Of a DNA stretch of 64,000 bases, positions 14,088 through 22,847 are shown one piece after another. The position numbers were made by a program, and so were the translations under genes. Each line of letters opens with the position of its first letter. The stretch's first letter is position 1. The stretch covers positions 19,344,001 to 19,408,000 of the forward strand of contig JBHGNT010000005.1 of NCBI GenBank assembly GCA_043228905.1, given 5' to 3'. Under the pieces are notes generated by a model. It worked only from the letters and a program-made list of their open reading frames with translations, was not told where the DNA came from and ran no database searches. This DNA comes from Azolla caroliniana (Eukaryota; Plantae; Polypodiophyta).

Positions 14088-17000
14088 CTATGGAAAGATG
14101 CCACTAACTTTGTAACATGTCGCAATCCTGTCGATTGCAATGAGATATGCAGCTGTCCGAAAGTTGCAACCCTACAAAAAGAATTTATTCTCACATCATA
14201 TTATTTTTCTCTAAAATAAATGCTTCATAACACAATCTTTTACCATTTGTGTTGCTGTACACCTTACGTTTTCCCAGCTTACAAGCATAGTCTCCTCCAA
14301 ACCAGAGGACACAAAATCTGCTTCTGTATTACTACACATCATAACAATAATCATATTTATAAATCAGATAATGAAGTTCACTGTTACTATTATTATTATT
14401 ACTATTGTCAACAAACTCAACAATTTAGAGACCCAGTTAATAGAACATACACAATTTGTGGCCAACAATCGCAAAAACAAAAAATGAAGTTCTTATCAAC
14501 ATTCTCAAAAAACATTGGATACTGACCAGCTAAATAGAGTATATCAAATTTGCAACCAACAATCACAATACAATACATTAATAAAATATACAAAAATTTG
14601 TGGCTCCACAACAATAACAACAATACACGAGACCCACTAATATAATGTTTTCACTTGTATCATTTGACTCTCATTCAATAAGTAAATAGAAACCTTTTAT
14701 CCAATTTAATCTCAAAACATAAATAAGAGATTCAATGAGAGATCAACCAAATTAATAAAACCCTTGTTAGACAACTTAAAAAAACTTCTAGGTTTTCCAA
14801 TTCATCAAAAAATTCCAGGTTGTCACTAAGTATTTTTTTTCTTTGACATGATGCTATTCTTAAATTTCCATTTTTGCCAAGGACCTCTTCTACAAGTTTT
14901 TTTAATTTCCAATCTCACCAATATTGTTTTTACCCTTTCACATGATTATTTTTTTCATGTTACTTTAATTTGTGTTTTACCCTTTCACAAGCTGTCGGCG
15001 AAGGTCTTCCGAAAGCCTATGCCCCTTTCCAAATTCAAGTTCCATTGCATCCAGAAATACCTAGTATAGTAGTAATAATAGTCGTAATAATAATAATACA
15101 AACTAGTTCAAAAATCCACAGCATTCAATCAGCAAATTGAATTTTTTATGTATGCTCAACTTGTGTATCGAAAAAAATATCACCTGTTTGTCACGTTCCT
15201 CCATTCTTCGGCTCATCCGACCAAAGGGCATATGATTGAGATTCTTCAACCACTCAAAATACGATGCAATCACACCGCCCTTCCAAAAGAAAATACAGAA
15301 AAGAAAATATTTTTTTCCTGTCTCTAAAATTCTTCTTAGGTATACTTTAGTCTATATGGGTGTGTAGATGTCATCCAATGAAATCAAAGTGATGCAAGAG
15401 TGTGTCTCTCTTCAATGCATGCAGGTCATGCCCATCTACACGACCACTCCAGTAATGCTAATCATGGACAAATAAATGCTGGCATAATCCAACCCGAAAG
15501 GTGCCTCCCTCACTTTGGAAAACTCTTCATCTTGGATTGACCCATGTTAGAATGTTAAGTTTCACTTCGTCTACATTCAGAATCTTAAGTGTTTGGCTAA
15601 TGAGATCCTTTGGAACCCTCGGGATTTATAATAATTCAATTATAATTATTTCGGCTTGCTGTTCTCAAAGACAAGACAACATTTTAAGATGCAATCTGTT
15701 GTTCGGTTTCATTGGCCATTTGGCCTCTCTCAGTAATTTGTCATGTACGTAGTAGGCCCTCATCTGGTGGACCACAATCTCACCACCCTTGTCATTCGAT
15801 AGATAAAGGCCATTATTCCTGCCATTTCAGGTGTTTCCCTCATTTTGGAGACCTCTCCATACTGGTTGGATTCAACCCACAAGATCTTTTGAAGATAAAA
15901 ATTACACTTTATCTCACTTGAGAATCTTATGTGTATAGATGACAAGATTCTTTAGTCATGTCTTATTCTCTATTTATTTACTTATTTTATTTAGTTACAT
16001 TAATTTTGGTTTGTTGTTCTCAAAGATGAGACAACAATTTAAGATGTAATCCTTGTTTGTTCTTATACACCATTTTGGCTTCTTAAAAGATGTTGATCTC
16101 TCTTTATCTCTCTCTCTCTCTCTAAATTGGGAGGATAGAGGTTTGAGTCCTATATGGACCATAGGAGACCAAGTAGATGATTGAATGGAATGGTGGACAT
16201 TATAATTAGCTTTGGTCATGGTGATGACTTTGAGAAATATGGATTGCATATAACACATATATGCACTGAGCTGAATCCATTTACAGAGTGTTGGAAAAAA
16301 GGAGATTCTGTTCTCAACCTAAGTAATGCAATGCAACAAAAAGGAAACCTTGTGGATGTGATCCTCCCTAAATATCCAACTTTGAAGTTGGATGAAGTTC
16401 AAAATGTGGGGGATTCAGAAATCTCTAGCTCTCCCCAATAGACATGGAATCCAATGGGAATCAACGAAAAAGATCCAAAAGCAAAAACTTGTGTACCATT
16501 TAGATGCAAGATATGGAAAAATGGTTTGAAAGATGGGATACAACGAACTTCTTCATCATGCATCAATAGATTCCTTTGTGAATGAAGCCTTTTTGTAATG
16601 CCTATGTATCATGACATGGGAAAATTGTGGAGGCTCATGCGTCACACATCAGACTACAAACGTTGCACCTAACTACAAAACCATATTCTTCATCATTAAA
16701 CAGGAAAACTGCACACGTCAATACATGTTATAGTACATCCCATTATTGTGCATCCAAACCATTGCTTCCATATCACTTATCTCACACTCACTAGGATGTG
16801 AGATGGGGAATTGTAGCACAAGTGATGAGACTAGTTGAATATGCACACTTTGCCGTAAACCAGTTTGGGAATTTGAGTATCACACTTTGATACAAGCTCT
16901 GCCTTTCATCACATTCAAGAATGCTGTCCACACATCTTTGACTAAACCCAATCCTTGCATGAATTTCTCTCAATGTCACAATGTGCAATCTCAATTACAA

Positions 17001-20000: not shown

Positions 20001-22847
20001 TCAGCATGTTCAATATCATCAATCTTAAGGTTGTATCTAATTTAGAGGTATGGTAATGGCTATTTTCTAACAGCCTAATTGACAAGAAATACATGTAACA
20101 AATCATCACGTCAGACCATCGAAAAATACAACACATCCATCAACAATAAAACCACCTCAATATTAACTCACAGTACTGGTATGTTGACCAACATTGCCAA
20201 ATCCTTGTACTACAAAAGACTTTCCTGTAACACCCAAATTGAAACCCAGTTCTTTCATGCTTTCCTGAAAAAGATAATATGTTAGCTAAATTCTGGTGAT
20301 CCTTCCTCTTCATGTTGATAATCTTAACAATACACAATGAAAAGACTCAGAATTTCTGGACCTGATGGTTCAGAAACTCCCTCAAGCAAAAATACACTCC
20401 GAGTCCTGTAGCCTCTTGCCTACCATGGATTCCACCCTAAATTGTATTGATTAAACAGTTTCAGTACTCATTCATCATTACCCAATGGTAGATTTTTCAA
20501 CGAGATACAAGCTTATCCATCAGGTGTTGGCACTATATTATTTCTTCATTATCATCACATGTTAATAATGTAAGAACAAGCTGTTGGTTGTCAAATAGAC
20601 CTCTTCAAGGGGCTTTCCAGTTACACAGGCTGAGCTATTGATATCATCACTGCACAGTTGCTCATATGTGTCCTGAAAGGGAAAAGAAATGTTATAGATA
20701 AAATGCAGTGCAGACAAACCATGTGTGCAAGGATTATCTTACTTTAATCCAAGCCATTTCTTGAGATCCTGTTCCATAGTCAGGAGCTGGAACATCCTGC
20801 ACTATATGCTCAAATAATGAGACACCTGAATACCAAAAGTGTAAACAGGATACTCAGGATGATCAATCACACACTCACAATTGCTGGACCAATAAAGTTC
20901 TTCTTCACCAGTTCACTTGTGTATCTCCTTATCAGTGATTCTTTCTCGCTTATAGAATACTTGGTAGGATCTGATAATATCAACATTCTACTCATATCAA
21001 TGGAGATACACATTATCGTAGAGAGTTCATTGAATTTTTTTTCCAGACATAAGCATACCAACTCGAATGCCACCCTTTGCACCACCAAACGGAACATCAA
21101 CAAGAGCACACTTGAAAGTCATTAATGCTGCAAGAGCCATGGTCTCATTGGCTTCCACATTAGGAGCCATACGAATTCCACCTTTCACTGATATCAAAAT
21201 GAGAAGAAATTTGAGTTAGATCTACATATATCACATGCCATTTTAAAAAATATACGTTCTGGTATCTTAAGCTACCAGGTGAAATTAACTAGAGGAATCA
21301 TGGCTTCATCAATTGACAAGTGATTAAAGTAGATTCCAGGTGATATACTGACAAAGATAAATTTCTAGCATTGATCCGTAAATAGGTGAATAAAAGAAAT
21401 ATGGAAAACACAATAAATTTCCTTTAAATATATGCACATTTGAACTATTTTTTAATAGTAAAATGTAATAAATAAACCCCCTACCAATGCATAAACCAAA
21501 TTAATAACGATAACATTTAAACCATGTCAATTGACGTTTGTATCCAACTATTCACAACAAGAAAAGACTTCAAACTGACAGAAATAACTCTTTGATGAAG
21601 CAATAACTAAGGTAGTTAAACATAAAAAATATCATTTTGAAAAAAAACGAATAGACATCCATTAGAAGATGTATGTTATAGATGTACACTATGACATCCC
21701 TATTCACATGCTCAAGAGAAGAGATGAGTGTTGGACTTCTAAATACACATCAATCAAGAGTATTGAACGAATATAAAACTGATTTACCCAGACATACATT
21801 CTGTACATTTGGAAATGGAAATATATGGTTTTAGGATTTCGAAAAAAACCTGGAAGACGATGATGAGAATGTTGAGCTCTGTAGGCTTCGATAAGTTGAA
21901 CTGTCCCATCAGAGCGCTTGAGTGGGAAATGAAGCTGGAGAATATTATTACAAGCCTACACAAGAAAACATATCTTACATAGGTATTCACATTCACTTAA
22001 CCAATTGACAGTGTATAAAACCAGACGAATATACCTTGATTTGAGCAAGGATATCTGGTGTAGTTGATGTTAATTTAGCTGCTCTATCATAGTAAATATC
22101 AACCGCTTCAAGGAAAGACGGTTCTCCTAGAGAAATAAGGTGTGAATGATGAGTCCCATCATAGTTTTCATTTATATTATTATATTAACCAATGCTTCTG
22201 AGAAGCCTAAAAAAGTAATGAAGATTAGCGTTATTAGGTGCCTTCTCATGTCTTCATTCTTACGCATCAATGCATTACTTATAGTTTGCATTTACTTGAA
22301 GTGTATTAATCAATGCTTCTGAAATGCCTAAAAAATTCATGAAGAGTATCTACTCATCACTTATGCATCGAGTTGAGAAAAGTGGCAAAAGGAATAAATA
22401 ATAATGTCATGCTGCTGTTTTCTAATCATAAACACACACAGACCGATGCATAGTAAGTATGCAGACAAACGCATGTAGCCATGTATCTGTGCCATGTGTG
22501 TCGAATTATTTATGCATATAAATACTCTGTTCACCATTTTGCCCAATGAGATGAGTGGGGAGATGATAATGTTGTCTAATTTTAACATTCAAAGTTGATA
22601 GAGTATACACATCAGTGCCGAAATAAAAAATCAGATGCTAAAAACCCGTTCTTCCTCTTTCAGCTAAATAAGAAATCAGATGTTAAAAACCTCTTTCAGC
22701 TAAATAAGGAAGCATACGCATACCTTCAGGACATCCATGCAAGAGAGCTTTCTGAGGAATGAAACGCTTCGCCGTTTTGAAGGCCGCATTCTGCTTCCAC
22801 AAAGGAATGGTACGAAGAGAAACATACCTTGGCCAGGGCTTCCACAT
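14088..22847 (-). CDS. GDH: glutamate dehydrogenase, animal/ciliate-like (antenna-bearing) type, probably mitochondrial; 16 exons, 512 aa
   Basis: Exons (minus): 22847-22724, 22126-22035, 21955-21850, 21187-21059, 20970-20879, 20796-20743, 20672-20601, 20436-20362, 20264-20172, 19729-19580, 18781-18683, 18097-17993, 15279-15184, 15060-14981, 14331-14244, 14171-14088. All GT-AG, 1539 nt open frame. Motifs [74 protein letters not shown]. Basic, acid-poor N-terminus looks like a transit peptide. Confidence 0.93.
15655..16122 (+). mobile_element. 3' fragments of non-LTR family 2 in GDH intron 12
   Basis: Two copies of TGTTCTCAAAGA..AGACAACA.TTTAAGATG (~15660, ~16014) and a CT-rich tail at 16098-16122. 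Homologous to 46200-46578. Confidence 0.8.
16400..17135 (+). mobile_element. 3' fragment of non-LTR family 1 in GDH intron 12
   Basis: Colinear with the reverse complement of ~9620-10330 (e.g. GGTCATATTTGACCTC vs GAGGTCAAATATGAC). Ends in CTCTATCTATCT. Confidence 0.8.

Follow-up and report, generated by a model that had tools for sequence, protein, structure and literature searches.

Does a land plant carry a glutamate dehydrogenase (GDH) with the antenna usually ascribed to animal enzymes? The question arises from a 64,000-nucleotide (nt) stretch of Azolla caroliniana DNA (contig JBHGNT010000005.1, positions 19,344,001 to 19,408,000), hereafter the window. A sequence-only reading had proposed that a gene here encodes a GDH of the animal/ciliate type, potentially allosteric and absent from model angiosperms. 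We favour a modified answer, to which we give a probability of roughly 0.7. The gene encodes an intact member of an antenna clade of GDHs, which is present in streptophyte algae, bryophytes, lycophytes and ferns and was likely lost in seed plants. The enzyme is likely a mitochondrial hexamer in which the predicted antenna couples subunits, and it likely lacks inhibition by guanosine triphosphate (GTP) of the animal kind.

An intact gene with an antenna-length insert

Exons were assembled by splice sites on the minus strand, with 13500-23500 read. The resulting model runs from an ATG at 22847 to a TAG at 14088 through 16 exons. Its coding length of 1539 nt specifies 512 amino acids (aa) plus a stop codon, without a frameshift, and all 15 introns have GT-AG borders. 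The motifs quoted in the sequence-only reading were all found in the translation, and the residues that follow WLKNLNH agree with the quotation. Identity to Adiantum GOP47_0025265 is 81% over 471 aa, and identity to a Pteridium fragment is 86% over 137 aa. On the Adiantum orthologue (P0002, 81% identical), PF02812 and PF00208 score 167 and 204 bits, both above cut-off.

The insert was sized between two anchor residues. W407 and G466 delimit 58 residues, compared with 16 in 11/11 antenna-less controls and 63-68 in three named animal rows. Compared with an antenna-less GDH this makes an insert of 42 aa, while the animal rows have 47-52. It falls within the 40-50 aa that define an antenna between WLKNLNH and the pivot helix. 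The insert noted earlier is present, and its estimated length of about 40 aa is corrected to 42 aa.

Most of the antenna had been assigned to a dedicated 80-nt exon, in which 'dedicated' is an overstatement. With 26 2/3 codons, the exon (15060-14981) accounts for about 63% of the insert, and its start lies midway along the predicted ascending helix. The preceding part of that helix (M414-Q429, with R418 equal to human R400) lies in exon 13 at 15231-15184. All 12 Physcomitrium introns equal introns of the Azolla gene in position and phase. The Azolla gene has three introns beyond the moss set, one of which divides a 176-nt moss exon into 96 + 80 nt. This extra intron interrupts the predicted ascending helix, and a length of 80 nt is not divisible by three, so the exon does not qualify as an antenna cassette. 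Removing it would shift the frame, and it is neither a conserved nor a skippable unit. We rejected the exon as an antenna module.

Transcript evidence came from Logan contigs of four runs from three studies, with RNA status guessed by the tool. The joint between exons 13 and 14 (15058/15182) is present in 4/4 runs, and those between exons 14 and 15 (14331/14981) and exons 15 and 16 (14170/14243) in 3/4 each. Single contigs traverse exons 13-14-15-16 in runs X2 and X4, the X2 contig with 3 mismatches. The intron 5 joint (20795/20878) is present in X3 and X6. None of the remaining 11 junctions was seen among the contig joints listed. No run was recorded as RNA, and run X1 behaved as DNA. Since contigs join exon 13 to 14 and exon 14 to 15, the 80-nt exon is in the transcript, and this part of the original splice model holds.

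In X3, a single contig of low depth is spliced to an acceptor farther upstream (joint 15102/15184; window 15061-15102, minus strand). The alternative joint adds 14 codons, the last an in-frame TAG, ahead of exon 14, and would truncate the protein within the antenna. It is probably splicing noise.

Could the antenna be an artefact, through a mis-predicted exon, a pseudogene or contamination by animal or protist DNA? The chance of this is negligible. Identity to Adiantum at 81% and a plant-like neighbourhood (a BEACH-domain gene and retroelements) argue against it, and the spliced contigs and the introns in common with moss refute it.

Predicted fold of the antenna

Fold evidence concerns the AlphaFold model of the Adiantum orthologue rather than the spliced Azolla protein. 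Across the antenna segment the two are identical at 40/53 residues, without gaps. The model comprises a helix at 409-430, a loop, a helix at 438-445 and the pivot helix at 450-476. Its mean predicted local distance difference test score (pLDDT) is 89.4, with 73 for the loop block. Hence the antenna shape, a long ascending helix, a turn and a short descending helix, is present as a prediction for the orthologue. This helix-loop-helix superposes on mammalian GDH, as the sequence-only reading had anticipated.

Foldseek with the same model returned animal GDH chains at all of ranks 1-39, and an ESM Atlas search gave the same animal/Bacteroidota neighbours again. In VIA-align, 460-470 residues superpose on animal GDHs and 406-411 on plant GDH1/2, a difference of about 50-60 model residues. 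Mammalian GLUD1/GLUD2 (PDB 1nr1, 3etd, 8ar7, 6g2u) have the same catalytic residues and the same layout of WLKNLNH, antenna and pivot helix, with 47-48% identity over the structurally aligned residues of the orthologue model. The Azolla antenna is 8 residues shorter. A trimer prediction for orthologue residues 385-503, made without alignment or controls, scored 0.00 and is evidence neither way.

Angiosperm NAD-GDH1/2/3 (AtGDH1 6yei, AtGDH2 8owm, MtGDH2 8s38), which use nicotinamide adenine dinucleotide (NAD), share the two-domain core, with a root-mean-square deviation of 1.4 Å over 410 residues. They also share the GFGNVG motif and a presumed mitochondrial location. However, they have about 411 aa (Azolla 512), no antenna and 38-39% identity. 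Profile comparison scores 458 bits with mammalian GDH and 276 with AtGDH1, and the AtGDH1 match stops at the antenna (orthologue residue 403). Together with the insert, these scores uphold the earlier view of an antenna-bearing GDH distinct from angiosperm GDH1/2.

Distribution and phylogeny of the antenna clade

The Adiantum orthologue was used as query in two word-seeded protein searches (whole protein and antenna region), each scoring 8000 candidates, with the best 120 listed. Top matches were from Ceratopteris, Selaginella, Diphasiastrum, Physcomitrium, Ceratodon, Sphagnum, Marchantia and Riccia. Algal top matches were Closterium, Spirogloea, Netrium, Klebsormidium, Chara and the EukProt 'Chlat1' set, which we take to be Chlorokybus. 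Below the streptophytes came protists, a red alga and bacterial proteins of ~470 aa; the antenna-region search kept this order. No named seed plant, hornwort or chlorophyte was among the best 120 matches of either search, in agreement with the earlier claim that angiosperms lack the class. Three further high-scoring proteins, all unnamed, group with algae and outside the land-plant clade.

Two antenna-type paralogues each were found in Selaginella, Diphasiastrum, Chlorokybus and Ceratodon (P0020, P0022, P0033/P0034, P0005/P0008), and the second lycophyte copies are fast-evolving. A match from a Leptophrys library (P0015) nests with Closterium. It was read as algal prey and left out of the main tree.

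The bacterial loci (L001-L080) are the best 80 of 603 matching stretches in one of 64 parts of a prokaryote collection, and give no frequency estimate as they were picked by similarity. C-terminal tails are of antenna length in 80/80, with 108-114 residues (Azolla 111) compared with 68-70 in six antenna-less control loci. These loci span at least 9 phyla. The ~470-aa bacterial enzymes (Bacteroidota, Pseudomonadota, Acidobacteriota and others) have inserts of 40-45 aa, the same C-terminal GIFP pattern and, among the rows listed, 51-55% identity to the Azolla protein. They differ in having neither presequence nor introns. No NCBIfam model reached cut-off for the 2 bacterial antenna GDHs checked.

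A tree of 62 rows, hand-picked from about 500 sequences, was inferred using IQ-TREE (LG+C20) with the antenna columns removed. It left out angiosperm GDH1/2, Tetrahymena and mammalian sequences, and its antenna-less controls came from prokaryotes or unnamed sources. A split supported at 100/100 separates the 51 rows with an antenna from the 11 without. Descent shared with other antenna enzymes thus holds independently of the antenna columns. All 19 streptophyte rows form one clade (100/98), with the Chlorokybus rows basal. The Azolla protein groups with fern rows (99/97), outside Adiantum, Ceratopteris and Pteridium. This position makes a fern beyond those three the likely source, though by itself it would also fit another euphyllophyte. 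Animals, red algae, bacteria and several protists branch at the base of the antenna clade, which is unresolved.

In the best tree plants do not form a sister pair with animals; constraining them to do so costs 19 log-likelihood units, with an approximately unbiased test value (p-AU) of 0.058. The term 'animal/ciliate type' was therefore right about the antenna class and less apt about kinship, the nearest non-streptophyte matches being protists and bacteria. 'Antenna clade' is the better fit.

How did streptophytes acquire the gene? Horizontal gain at their base, from a bacterium or protist, would account for the lack of named chlorophytes among the listed matches and for rhizarians and bacteria as the next-best matches. 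Two rhizarian rows, and not red algae, are sister to the streptophytes (96/87). We nevertheless consider such a gain unlikely, compared with an ancestral eukaryotic gene lost in chlorophytes and seed plants. Plants fall outside a clade that unites the 17 bacterial rows (96/93), and the base of the antenna clade is a polytomy-like, poorly supported region. Moreover, antenna GDHs also occur in red algae, Heterolobosea, Anaeramoeba, rhizarians, a ciliate and animals.

Residues for catalysis and possible allosteric control

Human residue lists were taken from PMC12145852 (section 11), and numbering was read by eye from the profile alignment. The catalytic set K109/G111/K133/K145/D187/R229/S403 is intact, and GxGxxG reads GFGNVG. 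Human catalytic and glutamate-binding counterparts (K94, G96, K118, K130 and D172) are all kept. The catalytic Lys/Asp motifs (K109, K133, K145, D187) are thus intact, as first described.

The GTP site is a different matter. Human S217, R221, H262, R265, Y266, R269, K450 and H454 correspond to E, L, H, T, F, A, A and S. Among animal controls, Rotaria and Menopon keep 8/8 and Elysia six. The Azolla protein does not have a GLUD1-type GTP site and, because only 1/8 of the human residues is kept, GTP inhibition is unlikely.

Bovine-numbered H85, R86, D119, K387 and R396 are kept in the Azolla protein and most antenna-clade rows, while H85, K387 and R396 are missing in 11/11 antenna-less rows. We take H85, R86, D119 and K387 to be residues of the pocket for adenosine diphosphate (ADP), and R396 to be human R400. 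ADP-type activation has about even odds. Pocket and R400 are likenesses to mammalian GLUD1/GLUD2. In contrast, 7/8 GTP-site residues are replaced, as is human R463 (by V473), a position that varies among animals too (R/K/T). The mammal-like allostery first envisaged is weakened accordingly. R463 is needed for ADP activation in human GDH1.

Might the protein still be an animal-like enzyme, under GTP/ADP energy-charge control and with an antenna from a dedicated exon? Its best solved-structure matches are mammalian GDHs, H227 and H276 are kept, and the p-AU value does not reject plant and animal monophyly. We regard this as very improbable given the lost GTP residues, a best tree that keeps plants and animals apart and an 80-nt exon that is not separate in moss.

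Ciliate GDH is another of the closest comparisons. The antenna is short (59 residues between anchors in Ichthyophthirius, 58 in Azolla) and the animal GTP site is absent. The difference lies in a separate long branch and 36% identity to one named ciliate sequence. Ciliate GDH reportedly escapes GTP control. A ciliate GDH with a truncated antenna is described as ADP-activated and palmitoyl-CoA-inhibited in the part of PMC12145852 available. In the Ichthyophthirius GDH (P0295), Arg replaces Lys at two catalytic positions, and R211 and S381 are changed as well, so that its catalysis may be altered.

Alternatively, the antenna could be structural only. The enzyme would then be an unregulated GDH on which purine nucleotides have no effect, and its antenna a trait that the clade inherited and animals later exapted. 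The loss of the GTP site, the replacement of R463 and the antenna-length insert in 80/80 of the bacterial loci kept, across at least 9 phyla, speak for this alternative. However, antenna and H85/R86/D119/K387/R396 pocket occur together throughout the clade, and a short-antenna ciliate GDH is ADP-activated according to the accessible portion of PMC12145852. This alternative is tentative, at somewhat below an even chance.

We favour an active antenna-clade enzyme, and its mode of action can be sketched. It would interconvert glutamate and 2-oxoglutarate plus NH4+, most likely deaminating with NAD(H). A preference for NAD is suggested by the Phe in second place in GFGNVG, a rule given in PMC7326016, and dual NAD/NADP use is possible. 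Within a trimer, the three antennae would wind around one another and make it easier for the NAD domain to open and close, as PMC12145852 describes for human GDH1. Allostery, if any, would most likely be ciliate-like, with activation via the pocket under the pivot helix and no GTP brake. The first 30 aa are presequence-like, with 7 R/K and 0 D/E, a composition compatible with a mitochondrial presequence. Overall, the Azolla protein is likely an active, NAD-preferring, mitochondrial GDH whose antenna likely couples subunits.

Weighing the evidence

Several points weigh against our interpretation. The absence from seed plants rests on two word-seeded searches of 8000 candidates each, and the RNA label of the contig runs is a guess. 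Canonical plant GDH1/2 are absent from the tree rows. Ciliates are poorly represented by their sole named row, in which catalytic residues are substituted and the branch is long. Given the change of R463 to Val, ADP activation may be absent. The AlphaFold model of the orthologue may lean on known mammalian GDH structures. Finally, VIA Z-scores tie (AtGDH1 57.9, bovine GDH 57.3), so that the core fold does not separate the classes. From this tie and the longer animal alignments, both classes share the core, whereas the additional segment finds a structural match in animal enzymes only.

A further-reaching possibility is that plants inherited two classes of mitochondrial GDH from algal ancestors and kept both until seed plants split off. 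The antenna enzyme then lost would have been regulated by ADP or another metabolite in a GTP-free way that predates animals. We hold this tentatively, as falling a little short of evens. If it is true, the questions become what the antenna did before the animal GTP switch, and why seed plants could drop it.

Published accounts describe a narrower distribution. In the available parts of PMC7326016, PMC11050691, PMC5192433 and PMC12145852 the antenna is specific to animals or mammals, and two of these add ciliates. PMC11050691 and PMC5192433 call it unique to animals, the former with the phrase 'first appearing in the ciliates'. The text available of PMC7326016 has the antenna absent outside animals and plants with type I/II NAD-GDHs only; mosses, ferns and Selaginella are unmentioned there. 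Similarly, the accessible text of PMC12364357 describes microbial GDHs without an antenna, and a common GDH1/2 ancestor for angiosperms and liverworts. Among other sources available in part, PMC11579433 reports fern 'orthologs' of GDH1/2/3, PMC8623670 characterises two red-algal GDHs with the antenna unmentioned in that part, and PMC13179614 covers fungi only.

The all-kingdom GDH network of PMC7326016, as described in its available text, used 400-500-aa sequences only and dropped outliers; its Streptophyta network used 250-750 aa and removed 179/804 nodes. The 400-500-aa filter may have hidden these proteins, which mostly exceed 500 aa. No paper describing a plant antenna clade was found in the literature searched, where subscription papers mostly fall outside. 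The seedless-plant proteins are already in databases as generic GDHs. We conclude that a second plant GDH class, conserved across seedless streptophytes, has apparently been overlooked as a class.

Contrary to the animal-only statements, the antenna occurs widely: in seedless plants and the algae related to them, in red algae, in several groups of protists and in many bacteria. Model mosses and liverworts have a GDH class without a counterpart found in seed plants. Hence, GDH activity or expression data from these plants may mix two enzyme types. They also offer a genetically tractable antenna enzyme free of the GTP site, in which the role of the antenna can be tested by itself.

Exon map and surroundings

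Table 1. The antenna-type GDH gene and its exons (window positions).
Feature	Position	Strand	Support
Whole gene, antenna-type glutamate dehydrogenase, 16 exons, 512 aa	14088..22847	-	splice-site exon assembly
Exon 1: ATG and presequence-like N-terminus, putative mitochondrial targeting	22724..22847	-	Ceratopteris BLASTP match begins at residue 7; splicing unseen in RNA contigs
Exon 2, [17 protein letters not shown]...	22035..22126	-	moss intron positions identical
Exon 3, CNNILQ...[10 protein letters not shown]104 and R105 = bovine H85/R86	21850..21955	-	
Exon 4, catalytic K109, K133, K145 = human K94, K118, K130	21059..21187	-	
Exon 5	20879..20970	-	joint 20795/20878 in X3 and X6
Exon 6, D187 = human D172	20743..20796	-	
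Exon 7	20601..20672	-	
Exon 8, GGIHGR; E231 and L235 at human GTP positions S217 and R221	20362..20436	-	
Exon 9, GFGNVG dinucleotide-binding motif; H276 = human H262 kept; T279 for R265	20172..20264	-	
Exon 10, F280 and A283 in place of human Y266 and R269	19580..19729	-	
Exon 11	18683..18781	-	
Exon 12	17993..18097	-	loose ends of X2, X4 and X8 contigs run into its 3' end
Exon 13, [11 protein letters not shown] and first half of predicted ascending antenna helix	15184..15279	-	
Exon 14, 80 nt, phase 0 to 2; V430-G456: predicted second half of ascending helix, turn, short descending helix	14981..15060	-	
Exon 15, antenna end and pivot helix; A460, S464, V473 for human K450, H454, R463	14244..14331	-	
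Exon 16, C-terminal helix ending SGIFP, stop codon	14088..14171	-	

Two introns attract deep contigs. Intron 12 (15280-17992, 2713 nt) contains high-copy repeats, and summed X1 contig depth reaches ~5700 over 15400-17250. Within intron 10, a 51-nt stretch (19339-19389) lies under very deep contigs, with loose ends on both sides and bin depths of 2309 in X2 and 20351 in X6. Rfam gave no match at gathering score in 12000-26000, this stretch included. It is possibly a fragment of an abundant RNA or a repeat.

Elsewhere in the window, a large multi-exon gene for a BEACH-domain (neurobeachin-like) protein occupies about 28219-53873 on the minus strand, with DUF4704, Beach and NBCH_WD40 matches. Its introns contain retroelement-like remnants, with open reading frames (ORFs) at 33884-34594 and 45384-46334. 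Further ORFs resembling those of long terminal repeat retrotransposons, copia-like and gypsy-like by eye, lie at 675-6103, 10428-11600, 56282-60334 and 62392-63972, and an RVT_1 fragment was matched at 10431-11018.

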